A DNA stretch of 64,000 nt from a virus: positions 1 through 64,000 of the IMG/VR virus record IMGVR_UViG_3300035492_000030; one strand, 5' to 3'. Below the pieces are notes generated by a model, which did no database searches, was not told where the DNA came from, and saw only the letters and a program-made list of their open reading frames with translations. The position numbers and the translations under genes were made by a program. Of the stretch, positions 5,588 to 62,413 are shown piece after piece. Position 1 is the first letter of the stretch, and every line of letters starts with the position of its first letter.

Positions 5588-6100
5588 TCAACAAGAAATT
5601 TCATTTGAAACAGCATCAATCAGCTTTCGTGCTTCTTGAATGTAGTAATCATAGTTCACATCACCTTTAAAGTCAAGAATGTTGTTACATGTCGAAACTT
5701 TCCAATCCGTGTCAATACCAAGTCTACGCCATTCTTCACCACCGTTCAAAGGAGGCATGATCTTGATTAGCTTACCACCCCCTTGCTTTACAGGATAGTA
5801 GCGGCAGATGTTTTGTTGCTCAATCACTTCACCATCTTCCATTTCAAGCACTAGACGAGATGACTTTGGTACTTTGGTTCGTAGGAAGAAATCATATTTA
5901 TCATCATGTACACGGATGAAATCCTCAAAGTCACCCATACCGAGCAAATGGTATAGAGCGGACATTGGAATAACCATAGCTGATTGATTTTTATGCCAAC
6001 CAATTTTATCAAATGGCATTACCTCATATCTACCTTTTGTTTTTATTTTACCAGACGATATAAGATTTCTAATGATTTTAACTTCTTCATCGTGCGTCAT
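5588..6100 (-). CDS. DNA polymerase C-terminal fragment (putative thumb part of split polymerase)
   Basis: 170 aa from the ATG at 6100 (GAGAGGA RBS; the ORF-track start at 6115 is TTG). GKIKTKGRYEV fits the K-G-x-E block that follows KxY in family-B polymerases. Lies directly after the HEG that terminates the polymerase ORF. Confidence 0.5.
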   Translation of the reverse strand: MTHDEEVKIIRNLISSGKIKTKGRYEVMPFDKIGWHKNQSAMVIPMSALYHLLGMGDFEDFIRVHDDKYDFFLRTKVPKSSRLVLEMEDGEVIEQQNICRYYPVKQGGGKLIKIMPPLNGGEEWRRLGIDTDWKVSTCNNILDFKGDVNYDYYIQEARKLIDAVSNEISC

Positions 6101-6740
6101 AAGGAATCCTCTCAATCATCCAACCTTTAAATTCTATCTTATTTGTCTTGTATTTAAAAAATTTACTAATACAACCTTTTAATCCGAGTTCAGAAAGCTT
6201 TTTGTAAAGCACAATTTCCTCATAATTATCTTTTCGGATTACATACTTGTATTTAGTTAAAGTCTTACTCATCAATTTGGACTGTTCATCTCTATCTCTA
6301 CGCAACCACGATTCTTTTAACTTTAAACCGTGTGAATCTCTTACACCGTTTTCCCATTCTGTTTTTAATCTTTTTGAGATTTTAATTGATGTATCTGGGT
6401 GTGTAATCATACCACCATCAGAATCATTTCTCAAATTATAACCAAAAGATTTATCGTGCGAATTGAAATAATCCATCCAGAATACTTCTCTTTCCGCAAT
6501 TATATCTTGTTCGCAAATTTCTATTATTCTGAAAATAAAATTTTCATATCCGTACTTCACCATAGATTTTAGCATGTATTCATTTATATGTTTTACAGAT
6601 TTTTTACGGAATCCTGTATTATACTGAGAATTTCTTCTGTAGAAACATTTAGTTCTACCTATATAACATTTACCATTTACGGTATTTGTTATTTTGTAAA
6701 TACCTCCACAATCCTTAAATTTTACATCTATCAATTTCAC
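6087..6740 (-). CDS. GIY-YIG homing endonuclease
   Basis: GIYKITNTVNGKCYIGRTKCFYRRNSQY (GIY...YIG...R) at the N-terminus. The start overlaps the polymerase stop by 4 nt. Confidence 0.8.
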   Translation of the reverse strand: MKLIDVKFKDCGGIYKITNTVNGKCYIGRTKCFYRRNSQYNTGFRKKSVKHINEYMLKSMVKYGYENFIFRIIEICEQDIIAEREVFWMDYFNSHDKSFGYNLRNDSDGGMITHPDTSIKISKRLKTEWENGVRDSHGLKLKESWLRRDRDEQSKLMSKTLTKYKYVIRKDNYEEIVLYKKLSELGLKGCISKFFKYKTNKIEFKGWMIERIPYDAR

Positions 6741-8425
6741 TTCTTGTCCTCTTTTACGGCAACATACGAGTTAACATCAGCAATATACATTACAGAGTAG
6801 GTGTCACCTTCCATAGTAAGACCTGTAATATCTTCCCACCATTTGACCCATTTGTCGGCTTCATCAAAATTATCAACATCACACAGATACTCAAAACCAT
6901 CTGTATTGCACATGATAATTGTTGCACCACAATGGTCAATAAGTTTTTCCATCAACATGCAAAGTGATAGCTGTCCACCAATCGTAATTGACATTGTGTA
7001 AGCAGGATCACACAGAGGGCTAAACTCGTTGTTTGAATCCCCGTACACTCCATTCAAAGCAAGCTTTAGAGCTGCGTTTGCCGCACTTCCTTTAGGGTGA
7101 CTCTTACGTTCTTCATAAAGCTCTTTATACACCTTACAGAAGGTTTCACCTAAGTGTTGAGGATAAATCTTGTTAGCAATAGCCATGTTTGGGTAATACG
7201 ATGCAACGTCAAGCGTCCGAATCTTTCGCTTATCATTGCTACGAACAGTGCCTTGAACTGCACCATGAATACCACCAACACCGTAGTCATAACGGAATCC
7301 GTTGATAACTACATTCATCGTTTCAGCTACATTGTAACACCAATAATAACTCTTTGCTCCTTTTGGGGATTTTAGTTCTTTTTCCTCAATCCAACCAAGA
7401 GGCTGCTCTTTGCGAAGCTGTGCGATTTGTTCTTCAGTTGGAACATATCGCTTATTCTTTTTATCAACTGGATCAGATAGTTTTTTCTTCTTGACCACCA
7501 TTGCTGCATATTTAGCAACTTCACCAAGATCATGTTCAAGCAAATCACTAAATACACCTTTTGTTTCAGTAATGACTTGTTTCTTGAACCAATCATGAAC
7601 GGCTTTGAACTCAGGACGATCAAATTTAATGTAAGGAAACAGACAGTCATTAATCACAATTCGATCACGTTTAGTCTGGTTAATAGTTCTACCAAACTTG
7701 TTTCGAGTGTAACAGCAACCCGGACTAACTTCTTCAAGACGACGAATGAACAGTTCTTTGCCGATCTTAGTATCATTAAAATTGGTGCAGTCAAATCCGA
7801 ATTGCTGAGTCAAATCCTCACGAAGTTTTAGCGCATCATAGGAATACCAATAGAACTTCAAAGTTTCACGAATATCATTCTTGTTATATTTTACAACAAT
7901 ATCCATTTGTTCTGGAGACAATACAGTTCCGACAGGAAACGGAAGTTCTTCAATATTCTGAGAACGCATATTAAATTCAAGCATCTTCAGAGAAGTTGAA
8001 CGAGCGGCGTTATCAAAATGGTGAACTTTAAAAAGATCAACTTGAGGAATAATTACCTCTGACTCTTTAATCTTTTTACCAAAACGGTCATCTTTCATGG
8101 AATTGATGATATCCATAGCAACTTTATACAGTTCTTTTGCTGTAATTTTAAGTTGTTCACCATCTTTCTTAGCTTTGCGTGCTTTCTCCAAAATGTAATG
8201 AATAACAGGATAGTCAAACCCCTCATTGTTAAATCCAACCATCCTATATCCACCAGCTTTTACCTTGCGAAGAAAATCAAGCATTTCTTCAGCTTCGTTT
8301 TTACGAGTGCTGATTTCAAAAACACGCTCACCTTTTCCATTAGCGTAAATTACGCCAAGGCTGAAAAAGTTCGGATAAGTCTCGATGTCGAATACCCAGT
8401 CCGTTTTAAACCACTTCTTTTGCAT
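6737..8425 (-). CDS. DNA polymerase, family-B-like, N-terminal part (exonuclease plus palm motifs A-C)
   Basis: Exo I DIETYPNFF, Exo II NNEGFDYPV, Exo III YNKNDI. Motif A LDVASYYPNM, motif B KLALNGVYG, motif C MCNTDGFEY. The ORF ends about 55 aa after motif C. Confidence 0.8.
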   Translation of the reverse strand: MQKKWFKTDWVFDIETYPNFFSLGVIYANGKGERVFEISTRKNEAEEMLDFLRKVKAGGYRMVGFNNEGFDYPVIHYILEKARKAKKDGEQLKITAKELYKVAMDIINSMKDDRFGKKIKESEVIIPQVDLFKVHHFDNAARSTSLKMLEFNMRSQNIEELPFPVGTVLSPEQMDIVVKYNKNDIRETLKFYWYSYDALKLREDLTQQFGFDCTNFNDTKIGKELFIRRLEEVSPGCCYTRNKFGRTINQTKRDRIVINDCLFPYIKFDRPEFKAVHDWFKKQVITETKGVFSDLLEHDLGEVAKYAAMVVKKKKLSDPVDKKNKRYVPTEEQIAQLRKEQPLGWIEEKELKSPKGAKSYYWCYNVAETMNVVINGFRYDYGVGGIHGAVQGTVRSNDKRKIRTLDVASYYPNMAIANKIYPQHLGETFCKVYKELYEERKSHPKGSAANAALKLALNGVYGDSNNEFSPLCDPAYTMSITIGGQLSLCMLMEKLIDHCGATIIMCNTDGFEYLCDVDNFDEADKWVKWWEDITGLTMEGDTYSVMYIADVNSYVAVKEDKK

Positions 8426-8476: not shown

Positions 8477-9070
8477 TCAGAAGTCAAGTGAATTTTGATT
8501 AAAAGCTAATCCGTGCCTATCTGTATAACCATAACCGCAAGAATTTAACTTTTCAATTTGTTTATTTCTAAATTCAATTGCTAGTTTAAAAGCAGTATCT
8601 TCACCGTATTTATCAATACTGAAATATTTACATTTTTCAATACCGTTTTCCCTCCATCTTGTCATAAAGTATTCATTACCGCAACCGTTATTCATTCTTG
8701 TAACACCTGTCACTCCGGTAGAATTTGTACTCCTTAATTTTTGATTTCTTGAATTAATTTCATTTGTTACAATCCTCAAATTAGACGGGTTATTGTTATT
8801 TTTATTACCATCAATATGGTCAATTTGATAGTTTCCATCTAAATCGTTTTCGGAATTTAAACAGTATATTATTCTATGAACCTTATAAGATTTACCAAAT
8901 AACTTTACATCGTAATAACCTGAATGGTGAAGAAATCCAGCATCGTCACCAGCTTTAAATTTAGTATTATTAGATATTTTTCTTTTCAACCAAGTTTTAG
9001 ATTCACTATCTATATAAAAATATTTTGACATTTCATCAAATGAAATTTTATTGTATTTCATTATTATCAC
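8477..9070 (-). CDS. HNH homing endonuclease with AP2-like DNA-binding domain
   Basis: IDHIDGNKNNNNPSNLRIVTNEINSRN (HNH_3-type), then STGVTGVTR...W...AFKLAIEFR (AP2-like). Free-standing between the primase-helicase and polymerase genes. Confidence 0.8.
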   Translation of the reverse strand: MIIMKYNKISFDEMSKYFYIDSESKTWLKRKISNNTKFKAGDDAGFLHHSGYYDVKLFGKSYKVHRIIYCLNSENDLDGNYQIDHIDGNKNNNNPSNLRIVTNEINSRNQKLRSTNSTGVTGVTRMNNGCGNEYFMTRWRENGIEKCKYFSIDKYGEDTAFKLAIEFRNKQIEKLNSCGYGYTDRHGLAFNQNSLDF

Positions 9071-9077
9071 CTACATT

Positions 9078-10835
9078 TTAAAAATCAACAACCATATCTT
9101 GAGATTGCTCATAATTTTTTTGGTCATGTTCATCAACAGTAGCGTAAGGATTCGCTGTTGCAAACATATGAGTTGTTGCGTGGTCATATTTTAACCATCC
9201 AGCTTCACCTGTGTTACCAGTACGACGACACTTGACAAGCTGCACCTTAGTGGCTGAACGCTTCACGGGATCGCTGTTCATCTTGTCCCGACTAATCAAG
9301 ATCGTGTTAAACGCAATTTGATTAATGCTAGAGCTACCCATAAGGTCATATTCACTGACAGCGTGTGGATCTTCCCCAGAAGGTTTACGCATGTGCGATA
9401 CAGCAATTACACTAGTATCGGTCTGCTTTGCAAACTTCAGCAGAGTGTCCATGAACTCAATAATTGCACCGTTGTCACTGCTATTAACACCCGCTTGAAC
9501 GGGATCAATGATAATTACATCACAACCCTCGGCTTTTGCGAGATAATTTAGCTTATCAAAAATCTCAGCAGTTGAGATACTACCCTGATGGTCAACGTAA
9601 ACGAATTGATCTTTCTTAGCAAGCCCCTCAAAGAATCGACGTTTCAGAGAATCAATATCAACCATGTTTCGATCAGCAGTACGCAGATTCACACCAGCAT
9701 CAAGCGACACAAGGTCACGAACAACCTCACGCTTAGTACCTTCAAGATACATTGCACCAACTTTGAACTTAGTGTTCTCAATTAAGTTATAAACAATGTT
9801 ATTAACAATCGAAGATTTGCCAATCGACGTAAGTGCCCCGATGACCGTGATTTCGCCCTTTTCGATACCCCCGTTCATCATCTCGTTTAGATGACTCCAA
9901 GCAGCAGGGAACGGAATTTTTACATTATCATCTTCATTTTCAAAATCTTCCCACATTTGGGATAGGTGCAGAATATCCACACGACTAAAAGGAACAGCCT
10001 TCCAAAAGATTTGCTTTAGTTCGCTAACACGATTCATCCGAAGAAGATCGCAAGCGTCCTTAACATCTGCTGGGAATTTAGCAATAAATGCTTTACCCGG
10101 AGAAATCAGGCGCGCGGCTTCCTCAATATAACGTTGTCCGCTTTCATCATTGTCAAAGGCAAGAATGACTTTTTCAAAGCTGTTAATGTATTCAAAATTA
10201 GCTTTGAATTGTTTGATAATACTACCGTCGCCACAAGTTACGCTAACACAAGGAGTCCAATATTCAACCTTATTACCATCTTTGTCGGTTTGTTCACTGT
10301 AAAGAACCTGAGAAAAAGCCATCGCATCTTCTTCACCCGTGGTGATTACTAGATACTTTTGACCTTTCTCAAATACAGCTTGACCAAACATTTCATTAGT
10401 AGCTTTTACACTACCAATTGCAGCAAAGTCCTTAGTTGCAATAATTCGTTTCTTATAACCTACAATCTTACCGTCTACAGTGGACGGATAGAATCGAGTA
10501 GTTGCCTCATCTTCACCTTGAATCTCAGTGCGGACACCATACTTGCGAGAAGTAATGCGAGTAATAGCGCGAGCCTTCCAACCTCGGAACTGAATCTTTT
10601 CAATATCAGAGAAGTCTACAACTTGATTTTGTTTACTTACTACTTCCACCATTTTTACTCCTGCTTCCTCTACTTTTTCAGGATTAAAATACTTATTACA
10701 AGAGAAACAAAAGGCATCAATTATATTTCCGTCATCTGTTTCTTTAGAGTATACAGCCATTGCATCAGAGCTATCACACTCGATGCAGCTTGCATGATAC
10801 ATCAGTTCACCATTATTTTCTTCGTATTTACTCAA
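9078..10835 (-). CDS. Bifunctional primase-helicase (T7 gp4-like)
   Basis: Zn finger CIECDS...CFSCNKY. TOPRIM TTGEEDAMAF / AFDNDESG. Walker A GALTSIGKSS. Walker B VIIIDPV. Confidence 0.85.
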   Translation of the reverse strand: MSKYEENNGELMYHASCIECDSSDAMAVYSKETDDGNIIDAFCFSCNKYFNPEKVEEAGVKMVEVVSKQNQVVDFSDIEKIQFRGWKARAITRITSRKYGVRTEIQGEDEATTRFYPSTVDGKIVGYKKRIIATKDFAAIGSVKATNEMFGQAVFEKGQKYLVITTGEEDAMAFSQVLYSEQTDKDGNKVEYWTPCVSVTCGDGSIIKQFKANFEYINSFEKVILAFDNDESGQRYIEEAARLISPGKAFIAKFPADVKDACDLLRMNRVSELKQIFWKAVPFSRVDILHLSQMWEDFENEDDNVKIPFPAAWSHLNEMMNGGIEKGEITVIGALTSIGKSSIVNNIVYNLIENTKFKVGAMYLEGTKREVVRDLVSLDAGVNLRTADRNMVDIDSLKRRFFEGLAKKDQFVYVDHQGSISTAEIFDKLNYLAKAEGCDVIIIDPVQAGVNSSDNGAIIEFMDTLLKFAKQTDTSVIAVSHMRKPSGEDPHAVSEYDLMGSSSINQIAFNTILISRDKMNSDPVKRSATKVQLVKCRRTGNTGEAGWLKYDHATTHMFATANPYATVDEHDQKNYEQSQDMVVDF

Positions 10836-11108: not shown

Positions 11109-11377
11109 TGCGTTTCCTCCTTGGACAAATCAAACATAATTTTCAATGATTCTGCGAATTTACCCTTTACAGGTACTAGATCAAAACATTCTTCCCTATC
11201 CCACTGCTTAAATTCATCCGTTAGGTAGTGGTAGACAAAAGTTTTTAGTAATTTCCACTCACCGTCACATTGAGCTTCAATTTGCATCTGTCGTCCACCA
11301 AAATCTACACAGACGCGCATTTCAAGGATGTTCCATTTACGACCATCAGTGGTAAAGAAGTGGGGCAAGCAGTCCAT
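11105..11377 (-). CDS. Hypothetical protein, first gene of the leftward replication operon
   Basis: ATG at 11377 preceded by GGAGGAGAAACAAT. The ORF-track start at 11413 would lie at or upstream of the predicted TSS. Confidence 0.55.
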   Translation of the reverse strand: MDCLPHFFTTDGRKWNILEMRVCVDFGGRQMQIEAQCDGEWKLLKTFVYHYLTDEFKQWDREECFDLVPVKGKFAESLKIMFDLSKEETQ

Positions 11378-11413
11378 ATTGTTTCTCCTCCAGTTTTCGT
11401 TTCGATACCACAC

Positions 11414-11441
11414 ATCTTATCAGATCCTCCGGTGGAGTCAA
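11414..11441 (-). promoter_or_regulatory. sigma70-type promoter for the leftward replication operon
   Basis: Minus strand reads TTGACT-16 nt-TAAGAT, preceded by an A/T-rich AAAATTTCTTGAAAA UP-like element. Confidence 0.6.
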
Positions 11442-11475
11442 CCCCTATTTTCAAGAAATTTTCTGTTCCTTACGC

Positions 11476-11504
11476 TTGACAACCTAGGAAACGAAGCGTA
11501 GAAT
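11476..11504 (+). promoter_or_regulatory. sigma70-type promoter, start of the rightward early block
   Basis: TTGACA (11476-11481), 17 nt, TAGAAT (11499-11504). Divergent from the promoter at 11414-11441. Confidence 0.7.
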
Positions 11505-11510
11505 GGACAA

Positions 11511-11931
11511 CGTAATGCAGAAAAAGCATTGCTCGGGGTTGGATGGGGTCAGAAATGCAACGTGCGTCCAATCTTTAAAGCTCACAAGGGAGTTGACACA
11601 AAGCAGAGTCTAGTCGAAAGAATCGGGACTCGTCAACGGGGCTGTAAGGGCCTATAAAAGCGATTCAAGAGGGTAGTCTTACCAAGACCCTCCTTGGCTG
11701 TCAGGCGTACCTGTGCGTATTGGCAGAGCCTAGAAAGGCTGTTGTTCTCGTCTCAAGTTTGGATGGCACATTTGTGCTTGACACAGGAAGAGAGTGAGGA
11801 TAACCTAAGCGTGACCTCAATCTCAGTCTAGGCTAAGAGTGTGCTCTTGGTATGGCTGGGATTAGGGGTAATCTCGCTTGGATTATCCGAACTCAGTTTG
11901 GATGGGTATTACATTTGATACAGGATTAGAA
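11511..11931 (+). ncRNA. Long structured untranslated leader / candidate ncRNA upstream of a small HNH gene
   Basis: About 420 nt with no ORF >=60 aa on either strand, visibly more GC-rich than its flanks, many hairpins (e.g. GAGGGTAGTCTT-acca-AAGACCCTC), and AGTTTGGATGG...ACATTTG repeated at 11756 and 11895. Confidence 0.45.
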
Positions 11932-12306
11932 ATGAGTAAGAAGAAAGATTTAGATGAGATATATGCAGACACTTGGAACAGACGAGACTTGATGTTAAAC
12001 GGCATTACTTACAACGAATACCTAAAGACAGACCATTGGAAATCTACGAAGCTAAAAGCACTGAAAAGACCTAACTACAAGAAATGTGAATTCTGTGATT
12101 GTCAAAAGATAGAATTGCATCACACAAGCTATAAACATTTGTTTGACAAAAGAGAGCTTTGCAATATAATTGCTCTTTGTAGGTTGCATCACCAAGAAGT
12201 ACATGACTACGCAAAACATACCGGATTCTCTGTTAGGGTTGCAACAAATCACTTGAGAAGAAAATACAAACCGGATTATACTAAAAAGAACAGGGTGCAA
12301 AATTAA
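11932..12306 (+). CDS. Small HNH endonuclease
   Basis: 124 aa from the ATG at 11932 (the ORF-track start at 11878 is TTG). CEFCDC...ELHHTSY...CRLHHQEVH is a Cys/His HNH layout. Confidence 0.65.
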   Translation: MSKKKDLDEIYADTWNRRDLMLNGITYNEYLKTDHWKSTKLKALKRPNYKKCEFCDCQKIELHHTSYKHLFDKRELCNIIALCRLHHQEVHDYAKHTGFSVRVATNHLRRKYKPDYTKKNRVQN

Positions 12307-19872: not shown

Positions 19873-20094
19873 ATGGCGCTTTACTATGTAAAAGCTTTTG
19901 ATACTGTTGTTCACGGTCCTTTTAATAGTGATGAGGAGATGATGAGTTATCATTACTCAAACTTTGAAAGTGGGGATTTGCTTTCAATCCACGAAAGCAA
20001 TGAGAGCGCAGAAAAAGAGGCAAATCATAATCTGAAATGTCTACAAGACGAAGCGTCTCAACTTCTGGAGACAGATCCTGCCTATTCTAAATAG
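19873..20094 (+). CDS. Hypothetical protein
   Basis: 73-aa ORF with AAGGAAGAAAGAAC upstream of the ATG. Confidence 0.55.
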   Translation: MALYYVKAFDTVVHGPFNSDEEMMSYHYSNFESGDLLSIHESNESAEKEANHNLKCLQDEASQLLETDPAYSK

Positions 20095-20211
20095 AAAGAA
20101 TTTATCAAGATGGTTTGATGCGATAGAGATGTTTCATTAGACCATCTGAATAAATCCTTTATACTGACCACATCGAAAGGCAAAAAGCCTTTCAAAACTT
20201 GGAGAAACAAC

Positions 20212-20511
20212 ATGACCATCCAGCACACTACCGAATCCCGCGAACTGGCTCTGTACGCTGTGAACGATCGCACTTGCTACAACCAAGCTTGCGCAATCAT
20301 CGAGAGCCTGCAAAAGAAAGTCAAAGCTGGCAAGTATGACGAAAACAAAGCCCAAAAGGCATGGTATAACCTGGCTGTTTTCGCTGCTAAACGTTATGCT
20401 GTAGAATTTGACAGCGCAATAAATTGGTCTAAGATGTTTTCGGTAGCAGATCGCAAGCTTGCCGCTCTGGATTTTGCCAACCACTACAAAGAGCAAATTT
20501 TTCAAGGTTGA
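20212..20511 (+). CDS. Hypothetical protein
   Basis: 99-aa ORF with GGAGAAACAAC upstream. Codon usage visibly more GC-rich than the bulk of the window. Confidence 0.55.
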   Translation: MTIQHTTESRELALYAVNDRTCYNQACAIIESLQKKVKAGKYDENKAQKAWYNLAVFAAKRYAVEFDSAINWSKMFSVADRKLAALDFANHYKEQIFQG

Positions 20512-60783: not shown

Positions 60784-60853
60784 TAAAATTTAGGCTCTTT
60801 TAACAGTAATGTTAATCGAAAATTCTCTAATTGCCGGAAACTCCTGCTAGGTG

Positions 60854-60883
60854 TTGACTACCGAGATATTATAGTGATATAAT
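60854..60883 (+). promoter_or_regulatory. sigma70-type promoter inside the intron, upstream of the HNH ORF
   Basis: TTGACT-18-TATAAT. Confidence 0.55.
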
Positions 60884-60984
60884 ATACTCACGTAATGTAA
60901 TGGTTACGGTGTGGTAAAAACGTCAACAATAGGGACAATCGGCAGCTAAAAATCTTGTCCTTGAATACCAGTAGAGGAAATCTT

Positions 60985-61704
60985 ATGTCTGAATCTGAAG
61001 TAATAAAATTTGAAAAACTATACAAAATTTTACCGGACTTTCCAAACTACGCTGTAACGGAAGATGGTGAAGTTTTAAATGTGAAAACGGGGAAAATTAT
61101 TTCTCAATTTCTTTGTGGAATTCCTCCATATTATTCAGTAAATTTTACTATAAATGGAAAGAGCAAGCAACAGAGGGTGCATCGAGTGGTTGCGATGGCT
61201 TGGTTAGTCAACGATGACCCTGAAAATAAAATTCAGGTAAACCATAAAGACGGAAACAAGCTAAACAACCATGTAGATAATCTTGAATGGTGCACTCCAT
61301 CTCAAAATCAACAACATGCCATTTCCACAGAGCTAAAGAATTCAAGTTACAAAATGCAAAATGCCTCATTGACCGAGGCCCAAGCCCATAGTATTTGTCA
61401 GTTACTTATGGATGGTTGGACAACTAAAGATGTTGCTGTTAAATTTGAAATTCCTAGATCAACAGTTTTAAAAATTAGGTGTGGTGATGTTTATAAGGAT
61501 ATTAGAAGTCTATATGACATACCAACCAATAAAAAATATAATCTATCTGAACAAACAGTAAGATGGGTTTGTGAACAAATTATTAACGGGTTTAGTGATA
61601 GTGCCATTGCCGATATGGCTAATAATAAAGCAATTACTACAATCATGGTTAAGAAGATTAGATATAAGATTAGGTTTAAAAGTATATCTTCTGAGTACTT
61701 TTAA
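60985..61704 (+). CDS. Intron-encoded HNH homing endonuclease
   Basis: 239 aa from the ATG at 60985 (AGAGGA RBS). VNHKDGNKLNNHVDNLEWCTPSQNQQHA. N-terminal NUMOD4-like YAVTEDGEVLN. Confidence 0.8.
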   Translation: MSESEVIKFEKLYKILPDFPNYAVTEDGEVLNVKTGKIISQFLCGIPPYYSVNFTINGKSKQQRVHRVVAMAWLVNDDPENKIQVNHKDGNKLNNHVDNLEWCTPSQNQQHAISTELKNSSYKMQNASLTEAQAHSICQLLMDGWTTKDVAVKFEIPRSTVLKIRCGDVYKDIRSLYDIPTNKKYNLSEQTVRWVCEQIINGFSDSAIADMANNKAITTIMVKKIRYKIRFKSISSEYF

Positions 61705-61866
61705 CCAAGATATAAGTTCAACGACTAGTCGAAAGACGTACACCCAAGTGGGTGGAAATGGGAATCTCCTCGAACTGAGGATGAAGATATAGTCTGATCT
61801 GCATGGAGACATGCAGCAGCTTGAATAAAGCGGGGGAGGCGTAACGACCCTCCCTGAACACTAATG

Positions 61867-62413
61867 TAATCACGAGCTAATTTCAAAGACACTTCCTCCG
61901 GGTAAAGCTAGAGATGCTTTTGAAGAGCTGGCTAAACAGATTGGTGTTAGTAGAACTGTTTTTAATAGTGTAAATCTTGAAAGTCCGATCATCAATGGTT
62001 ATCCCCTGTCTGGAACAAAGCGTGAAATGCTTGACGAATTGTCAGAGAAGTATAGCGTTGACTGGCAGATTGATGACGATACACTGTATGTTCATGACTC
62101 TGACCGTGGTAACTCTGAAAAGTTTGAATTAGCTTATGTAGTGTCAAAGTATACAGGGTTGGTTGACAACGCTTACAGAACTTCAGGTGATGTCAGGCGA
62201 TCTGAAAAAGATAAAGTCAAGAAACCCAGTATCCAATTCAAAATGATGTTGAATCCGGATATTGTTGCCGGATCTATTATCAAACTGGACGACACCTTAA
62301 TTAAAGGTTGGATTAAAGTTGATTCACTCAGGCATTGGGGTGGTTGGAGAGATACACCGTGGTATACGGAAGTACAAGGGTCAATGATTGAGAAGGTGGT
62401 GAATAATGGCTAG
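61867..62413 (+). CDS. Baseplate hub-like protein, exon 2
   Basis: The frame is open from 61865 with no start codon until 62027. It continues exon 1 in phase (junction codon CT|T). Confidence 0.6.

Follow-up and report, generated by a model that had tools for sequence, protein, structure and literature searches.

The locus at 11505-11931

The window, that is, the whole 64,000-nt stretch of viral DNA analyzed here, contains at 11505-11931 a region without sizeable ORFs, located between a divergent promoter region and a small HNH endonuclease gene. The locus comprises the following features.

11414..11441, minus strand: divergent promoter-like site TTGACT-16-TAAGAT with TG, for the leftward operon (small genes, primase/helicase, further replication genes)
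11476..11504, plus strand: promoter P1, sigma-70-type, TTGACA-17-TAGAAT, matching 11 of 12 consensus positions; the same promoter type precedes every family member read
11511..11931, plus strand: whole structured RNA, the 5'-most part of the rightward early transcript, with a predicted 5' end
11932..12306, plus strand: 124-aa HNH endonuclease gene with weak PHROG HNH hits, CxxC...HH...CxxHH motifs and 55 homologs

Transcription from P1 probably starts near 11511. On the left, the minus strand carries a replication module formed by the primase/helicase gene (9078-10835), an HNH-AP2 gene, a GIY-YIG gene, and ORFs weakly matching the RNase_H superfamily and 5'-3' exonuclease. On the right of the RNA, the HNH gene is followed by a string of small genes. 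The primase of the window is at most 34% identical to the primases of Pseudomonas phages, and the phage itself, as judged by sequence, is only distant kin of cultured phages.

The original prediction described this region as a GC-enriched structured leader or noncoding RNA behind a consensus promoter, and most of the individual observations can be reproduced. The promoter is present, and there is no ORF of at least 60 aa on either strand within 11505-11931, the longest being 45, 42 and 39 aa. The GC content is 0.485-0.505 over 11500-11899 versus approximately 0.33-0.43 in the flanks. The repeat at 11756 and 11895 is an exact 11-mer with an additional partial copy, and TTGACA boxes are readable at 11593 and 11778. 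The plus strand folds with a minimum free energy of -151.2 kcal/mol against a shuffle mean of -126.1 (z -3.95; none of 100 shuffles was equal), and the fold of the minus strand is weaker (z -2.36). The claim of many stems stands as far as dense structure overall is concerned, but several of the listed stems, e.g., GAGGGTAGTCTT-acca-AAGACCCTC, are unsupported by comparison.

Several smaller features of this neighborhood can be mentioned. The phage has many homing-endonuclease-type genes; two of them, GIY-YIG (6087-6740, minus strand) and HNH_3+AP2 (8477-9070, minus strand), belong to the replication module and both adjoin an ORF (6737-8425, minus strand) that weakly matches the RNase_H superfamily. 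Inside the HNH coding sequence, at 12143-12170 on the plus strand, there is a sigma-70 promoter with perfect consensus, TTGACA-16-TATAAT (12/12), which could drive the genes located 3' of the inserted nuclease. A mechanically called 142-aa ORF (11878-12306) is a mere upstream extension of the HNH frame, caused by an ATG within the second repeat copy that is in frame with the HNH gene.

Members and distribution of the RNA family

The RNA encoded at 11511-11931 belongs to a family that has no entry in Rfam 15: scanning the whole window at gathering thresholds and 11300-12100 at E<=10 gave no hit in either case, and the family was not described in the papers accessible to our literature searches. 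Homologs were sought first with the HNH protein, which has 55 of them, and then with conserved RNA words. Approximately 20 distinct versions of the RNA, 330-430 nt long, were collected; they come from nine metagenomic phage contigs and MAGs, from Otagovirus phages in culture, and from 123 records of Pakpunavirus. This is apparently a large pseudoknotted RNA family of many Pseudomonas-type phages that has been undescribed until now.

The layout of a promoter followed by the RNA is the same in IMG/VR contigs L001, L024, L033, L085 and L110, Logan contigs L020, L021 and L329, the JGI contig L270, and the MAG contig L332; in all members read, a sigma-70-type promoter is situated directly 5' of the RNA in a divergent intergenic region. 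Synteny with the window was observed in L001, L020 and L021, whose HNH genes are 68-72% identical. A blastn search with the HNH gene produced one match, in the Otagovirus Pseudomonas phage phiPsa397, where a 410-nt unannotated gap holds the same element, and a search with the phiPsa397 RNA matched 179 phage records. In Pakpunavirus, the RNA (PaP1 19955-20303) recurs with at least 95% identity in 123 records, JG004, PAK_P4, PAK_P2, K8 and PaoP5 among them; its locus there either has no annotation or is overlaid with short "hypothetical protein" calls. The tRNA cluster of PaP1 begins approximately 0.7 kb downstream of the RNA. The RNA is present in a single copy in VCM (one genome, 50 kb checked); a second candidate place in the same phage was rejected as a 19-nt chance match.

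The window copy has few relatives of its own. In blastn against phage records, the window RNA matched in the HNH coding part only. A first loose DNA pattern on viral contigs gave mostly chance among the matches listed, and an nhmmer screen of them yielded L085 and L110; a second loose pattern gave nothing new among the matches listed. The scan with a window-like pattern for the 3' hairpin H10 retrieved only chance matches in coding sequence. Neither the H10-like pattern scan nor the neighborhoods of 42 related primases provided a close RNA relative of the window copy: 42 IMG/VR contigs (L285-L326) from uncultured phages of 77-91 kb, with primases 72-82% identical, lack the RNA within 2.5 kb of the primase gene. 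Hence the gene order at the window hub is unusual within its own group.

Two small RNAs of phage PAK_P3, sRNA1 and sRNA2 (PMC4933390 supplement), have sequences unrelated to the family, and H10 was not found in PAK_P3 at 50-88 kb.

The gene calls at these loci deserve a comment. Spurious proteins have been called over the RNA: PaP1_gp160 (L277 1481-1594) and up to three "hypothetical proteins" per Pakpunavirus record fall inside it, and the 212-aa product P0010 of L329 (1501-2139) joins H10 to the HNH frame. Some members have genes of the RNA-repair type in the vicinity. In VCM (L278 40769-41914), an RNA ligase is encoded in the divergent unit near the RNA, and in L021 (3458-5477), a Thg1-family protein and an HD-domain protein are encoded 3' of it.

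Structure of the RNA and the paired word

The common architecture of the family is a 5' multi-helix domain with a pseudoknot, followed by the 3' hairpin H10. In the window, the helices and repeats are assigned as follows.

11514..11530, plus strand: H1, hairpin AATGC-agaaaaa-GCATT, from the fold
11537..11580, plus strand: H2, stem GGTTGGATG / CGTCCAATC with a 19-nt loop, then a TTTAAAG junction; from the fold, assigned in the window by eye
11592..11666, plus strand: putative pseudoknot domain, read by eye in the window; covariation in two other clades backs the H3/H5/H6 order
11592-11597 / 11632-11637, plus strand: window-specific outer helix GTTGAC / GTCAAC, by eye
11606-11610 / 11627-11631, plus strand: H3, GAGTC / GACTC, by eye
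11620-11625 / 11661-11666, plus strand: H5, GAATCG / CGATTC, by eye
11640-11643 / 11649-11652, plus strand: H6, GGCT / GGCC, by eye
11670..11740, plus strand: hairpins H7 (AGGGT/ACCCT), H8 (GCGTAC/GCGTAT) and H9 (AGCC-tagaaa-GGCT), from the fold and hand-curated stems
11756..11766, plus strand: DR1, first copy of AGTTTGGATGG, exact repeat
11794..11896, plus strand: H10, three-stem hairpin with the core TAGGC...GTATGG...TTAGGGG; model R1, 27.8 bits, E 3.3e-4
11895..11905, plus strand: DR2, second copy of AGTTTGGATGG, exact, preceded by CCGAACTC, a prefix that also precedes repeats in the Pseudomonas-phage clade

H10 is the most conserved part of the family, with the core motifs TAGGC, GTATGG and (C)TWRGGGA. 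The covariance model R1 was built from eight cultured-phage H10 sequences only, with the window left out; it recovers every metagenomic member as well as the window hairpin (E 3.3e-4 in 227 kb), and has no match in the HNH-only loci scanned with it (L008, L009, L017-L019, L022, L330, L331). Among 17 sequences, 92.7% of the alignment cells are paired and two-sided changes occur in 16 of 22 pairs, in an alignment fitted to the model and thus favoring the structure; none of 500 shuffles reached any of these measures, and slid controls pair at 30-47%.

The 5' domain was analyzed separately in two clades, each represented by eight sequences in a plain MAFFT alignment. In the metagenomic clade, helices H2, H4, H5, H6 and the pseudoknot helix H3 are 93.1% paired, with two-sided changes in 17 of 24 pairs (0/500 shuffles as high); the 3' strand of H3 sits between the 5' strand of H5 and H6. 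H2 followed by TTAAAG, assigned in the window by eye, is shared by the window with this clade. The Pseudomonas-phage clade gives 95.8% pairing and again two-sided changes in 17 of 24 pairs (0/500 shuffles), its pseudoknot helix being 100% paired with two-sided changes in four of five pairs. The order of strands is common to both clades despite different sequence. For hand-curated H1-H9 in nine members, whose stems were picked by eye, cognate pairing is 96-100% and non-cognate pairing 40-66%; H1 in this set is represented by nine different stems in nine members, all fully paired.

Models of the 5' domain from the metagenomic clade (R2) and from the Pseudomonas-phage clade (R3) detect neither each other's clade nor the 5' half of the window RNA (3 bits). 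These models miss the window and no close RNA relative of it was found, so that its putative 5' structure comes from folding a single sequence and from analogy; by that analogy, the 5' half can be drawn with the putative family helices H1, H2-TTTAAAG, H3/H5/H6 and H7-H9. The 3' half is a clear family member by the H10 model match, the repeat pair, and CCGAACTC before DR2. Overall, the predicted structured RNA behind the consensus promoter is supported by its conservation in relatives and by covariation, strong in the 5' domain (in the other clades) and in H10, with transcription predicted from the promoter; the empty Rfam scans are consistent with no known family. H9 was additionally flagged as a weak terminator-like site.

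On either side of H10 stands one copy of a 7-12-nt word, whose sequence differs between phages. In the window, the 11-mer AGTTTGGATGG occurs as an exact pair 139 bp apart, a repeat equaled in only one of 100 shuffles, and a partial third copy, CTCGGGGTTGGATGG at 11532-11546, is an 80% copy located 220 bp upstream. In 15 of 17 members, H10 lies between the copies of the best direct repeat, which are 94-139 nt apart, and for most members few or no shuffles match. Lineage-specific words include GAGAGGATGTAA, CCAAAGGACAG, GCGAATAGAG, ATCTGCATG and ATCCCCATGAGA. The two copies change in concert when close relatives are compared: the word is ATTCTGGATAG at both sites of PPSC2 versus ATTTTGGATAG at both sites of Pyxpy01, and AGCAGCACA at both sites of phiPsa397 versus AACAGCACA at both sites of XD2. 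In the Pseudomonas-phage clade, the two sites carry different conserved prefixes, GAACTC and GAATCT, which indicates that the duplication in this clade is old. All members have DR2 25-45 nt ahead of the start codon.

In the window, the similarity of the repeats exceeds the 11-mer (11752-11800 and 11891-11931): CTCA.GTTTGGATGG, ACATTTG and ACAGGA recur in order. In the other members the similar stretch is shorter, a hint that this lineage underwent duplication or conversion more recently.

A three-strand switch, initially favored because of complements to the word situated nearby in some members, was dropped as a general feature, since cis complements over the 17 members are no better than those of shuffled words, with p ranging from 0.04 to 0.79. 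Similarly, the 64-kb window contains only one-mismatch matches to the complement of its word, at chance level.

The downstream genes and the proposed RNA module

The genes directly 3' of the RNA are diverse. HNH family A occupies this place in the window, L001, L020, L021, phiPsa397, L329 and L332; a 270-aa HNH protein is encoded there in L033, an HNH-AP2 protein in L110, a Zn-ribbon protein in PaP1 and UAVern, and a 103-aa family in Kremar, VCM and PPSC2 (one gene further in XD2). In L024, L085 and L270, the RNA is followed by unrelated small genes. No conserved protein partner downstream of the RNA was found across the members compared. Conversely, the same HNH family occurs without the RNA in unrelated places of approximately eight loci (L008, L009, L017-L019, L022, L330 and L331). 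This variety of downstream genes, together with the HNH genes lacking the RNA, suggests free-standing homing endonucleases that settle by a conserved target, and not an RNA-protein system. The HNH gene of the window would be one of them, a selfish insertion lodged 3' of the RNA rather than its partner.

In L331, the HNH-family-A homolog is situated approximately 0.7 kb 3' of a tRNA-Leu-like gene (732-820), its other neighbors being MazG-like and DUF6016; the presence of this homolog without the RNA family shows the mobility of the nuclease family.

Considering all these observations, which show a conserved and structured promoter-proximal RNA gene independent of its neighbor, we favor, with a probability of roughly 0.6, the picture of an autonomous early RNA module with the HNH gene as a hitch-hiker. 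Starting at the near-consensus early promoter, the host RNA polymerase would transcribe the RNA ahead of all other elements of the rightward early transcript. The RNA would be a self-contained module whose action is independent of the gene that follows; most likely, it would be released early as a stable RNA or ribonucleoprotein, or would act on the transcribing polymerase. A lineage-specific partner would recognize the two identical single-stranded words around H10 or use them for processing. The HNH gene, inserted just 3' of the conserved RNA gene, would ride on the transcription of the RNA, which would neither guide nor need the nuclease. The ends of the window transcript and its stability are in this scheme predictions from sequence.

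A further step, which we consider an unlikely speculation, is that the repeat-hairpin-repeat unit is a programmable recognition device of a hitherto undescribed kind, in which selection keeps fast-evolving "address" words identical for one sequence-reading partner that acts on both sides of H10. If so, the H10 RNA could be excised precisely and the ends re-joined, or it could be released, or alternatively there could be a copy-choice jump between the two words, and a lineage-specific word would stop cross-talk among co-infecting relatives.

Most of the probability outside the favored picture goes to a purely cis-regulatory leader, the origin, operator, guide-RNA and intron readings being minor. 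Such a leader, a riboswitch-like sensor, an attenuator or a translational operator, would set the downstream early operon and use the repeats as the alternative pairing partners of its switch. No terminator was found between the RNA and the HNH start, and the RNA is contiguous with the next gene, so that it may act purely as a leader; the position of DR2 before the start codon in all members fits this as well. A complement to the word is indeed found nearby in some members, in the window as TTATCCGAAC at 11883-11892 (-11.7 kcal/mol, p 0.04), but the shuffle comparison over all 17 members speaks against pairing of this kind. Moreover, the first downstream gene is not conserved and has repeatedly been displaced by inserted nuclease genes while the RNA was kept, a length of 330-430 nt with a pseudoknot is far above the size of known expression platforms, and no riboswitch or leader family of Rfam matches. 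We regard regulation purely in cis as rather doubtful, albeit worth serious consideration. A replication origin, suggested in the original prediction as an alternative, would have the transcript prime or activate replication in the style of ColE1 RNA II or T4 ori, with the repeats as initiator iterons. The window RNA is situated at a divergent promoter hub, 0.7 kb from the primase/helicase gene, the GC skew changes its sign here, and the repeats are lineage-specific like iterons. However, the skew changes sign where the genes switch orientation, the primase of VCM is approximately 4 kb away from the RNA, the 3 kb around the element in PaP1 contain small genes and tRNA genes instead of replication genes, and the RNA is missing from the 2.5-kb primase neighborhoods of the 42 close relatives. 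Among family members, there are only two full copies, 94-139 bp apart, around a helix with RNA-type compensatory changes including G-U pairs. The window has two exact copies 139 bp apart and one 80% copy where at least three closely spaced iterons are expected, and a GC-enriched region where an AT-rich unwinding region is expected. The origin is left without specific support, and we find it improbable.

The same low probability can be assigned to the repeats being a DNA-level operator pair, at which a phage-specific regulator would loop the DNA around an internal promoter in H10, the RNA structure being a separate matter. Classical repression loops span a range that covers the spacing of 94-139 bp, and candidate promoters can be read in the 5' strand of H10, TTGAC(A/G)-17-TAnnnT in the window (11778-11806), L024, L110 and L270, and TTGATC-18-TATGAT in Otagovirus. 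Their hexamers overlap conserved RNA motifs and may thus be by-products; in addition, the internal promoter is not conserved in PaP1, L001, L021 and L033, the words are direct repeats rather than palindromes, and the spacing is not in phase with the DNA helix. A HEARO/omega-RNA-like pairing of nuclease and RNA, raised in the original prediction, with the RNA as partner or guide of the HNH protein, or else a mobile RNA-plus-nuclease cassette, is favored by the adjacency seen in the window and six other members (L001, L020, L021, phiPsa397, L329, L332). By distribution, this reading is largely refuted, and only a slender chance remains for it: the RNA precedes at least three unrelated nuclease families as well as non-nuclease genes, and the HNH family dispenses with the RNA at the loci listed above. 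Neither HEARO nor group I models of Rfam match here, and the 124-aa protein has no Pfam hit of any kind and no detected RuvC domain. The tempting image of a small HNH protein working with a guide RNA is thereby removed. As for an intron with its homing endonuclease, or a degenerate remnant of a group I intron, the original prediction pointed to a sequence shared with the intron at 61.7 kb; this 12-nt match (CTAGTCGAAAGA, 61725-61736) does exist, but at chance level (blastn E 3.6). The group I model RF00028, which scores 49 bits at 61640-61816, has no hit here at E<=10, and instead of an upstream exon the RNA is flanked by the divergent promoter and opposite-strand genes. Hidden small conserved ORFs, considered because the word contains AUG in a few members and because an ORF of PaP1 runs from DR1 through DR2, disagree with the substitutions, which are compensatory in helices and not codon-like, and with the repeat spacing, a multiple of three in only three of 17 members, which argues against a peptide. 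Both the intron remnant and the hidden ORFs are very unlikely, with hardly any probability left to them.

Comparison with known systems places the family between several of them. GOLLD (RF01998) and ROOL (RF03087) are large "ornate" structured RNAs of phages and prophages with no assigned function. Like them, the present RNA is phage-borne, several hundred nucleotides long, and has many helices, a pseudoknot and conserved loops, and its Pakpunavirus version is located just upstream of a tRNA cluster. Unlike them, it is smaller, matches no Rfam model, and always directly follows a sigma-70 early promoter, contiguous with the mRNA; we know of no repeat-hairpin-repeat unit in GOLLD or ROOL. With the HEARO/omega-RNA of IscB (RF02033), it shares the arrangement of a large structured RNA beside an HNH-containing ORF. 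IscB-type proteins, however, combine RuvC with HNH in about 400-500 aa, compared to 124 aa without a detected RuvC here; the IS200/605 context and a covariance-model match are absent in our case, and co-occurrence of the RNA with HNH is not obligate in either direction.

The putL and putR sites of HK022 are cis-acting antitermination RNAs of approximately 70 nt just downstream of phage early promoters, and the lambdoid nut sites are approximately 30 nt long, nutL and nutR being a duplicated phage-specific RNA word whose copies evolve in concert. The family RNA resembles put in following an early promoter for the host RNA polymerase, and by this analogy its action would ignore the identity of the downstream gene; it resembles nut in its paired lineage-specific words that change together. 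The nut copies, in contrast, are in two operons, whereas the family words surround one hairpin, and the family RNA is far longer than put or nut and has no similarity to them in sequence or structure. Finally, free-standing homing endonuclease genes of the T4 seg/mob type are inserted between conserved phage genes. The HNH gene is similarly small and patchy, and its spot is taken by other nuclease families in other members; the window has several more HNH and GIY-YIG genes. In contrast to seg/mob, its conserved neighbor is an RNA gene and not a protein gene.

Phages of Pakpunavirus and Otagovirus rank among those most often applied in therapy and biocontrol against Pseudomonas aeruginosa and P. 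syringae, and it seems that all of them have a conserved 330-430-nt RNA under a strong promoter. This RNA is probably among the first products of infection, yet it is unannotated or mis-called as small proteins. A new class of large pseudoknotted RNAs can be tested directly in these phages, which are amenable to genetics and have published transcriptomes (PAK_P4), and the co-evolving word pair around a conserved hairpin is an unusual signature asking for a mechanism.

A separate observation concerns the far end of the window. The segment 61640-61816 on the plus strand is a group I intron by RF00028 (E 5.8e-11); its score of 49 bits is one bit below the gathering score of 50, hence it was missed by the gathering-threshold scan. 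The ORFs 60955-61704 and 62027-62413 around it may be two exons of one gene, and a second, weaker RF00028 match is located at 60832-60988.
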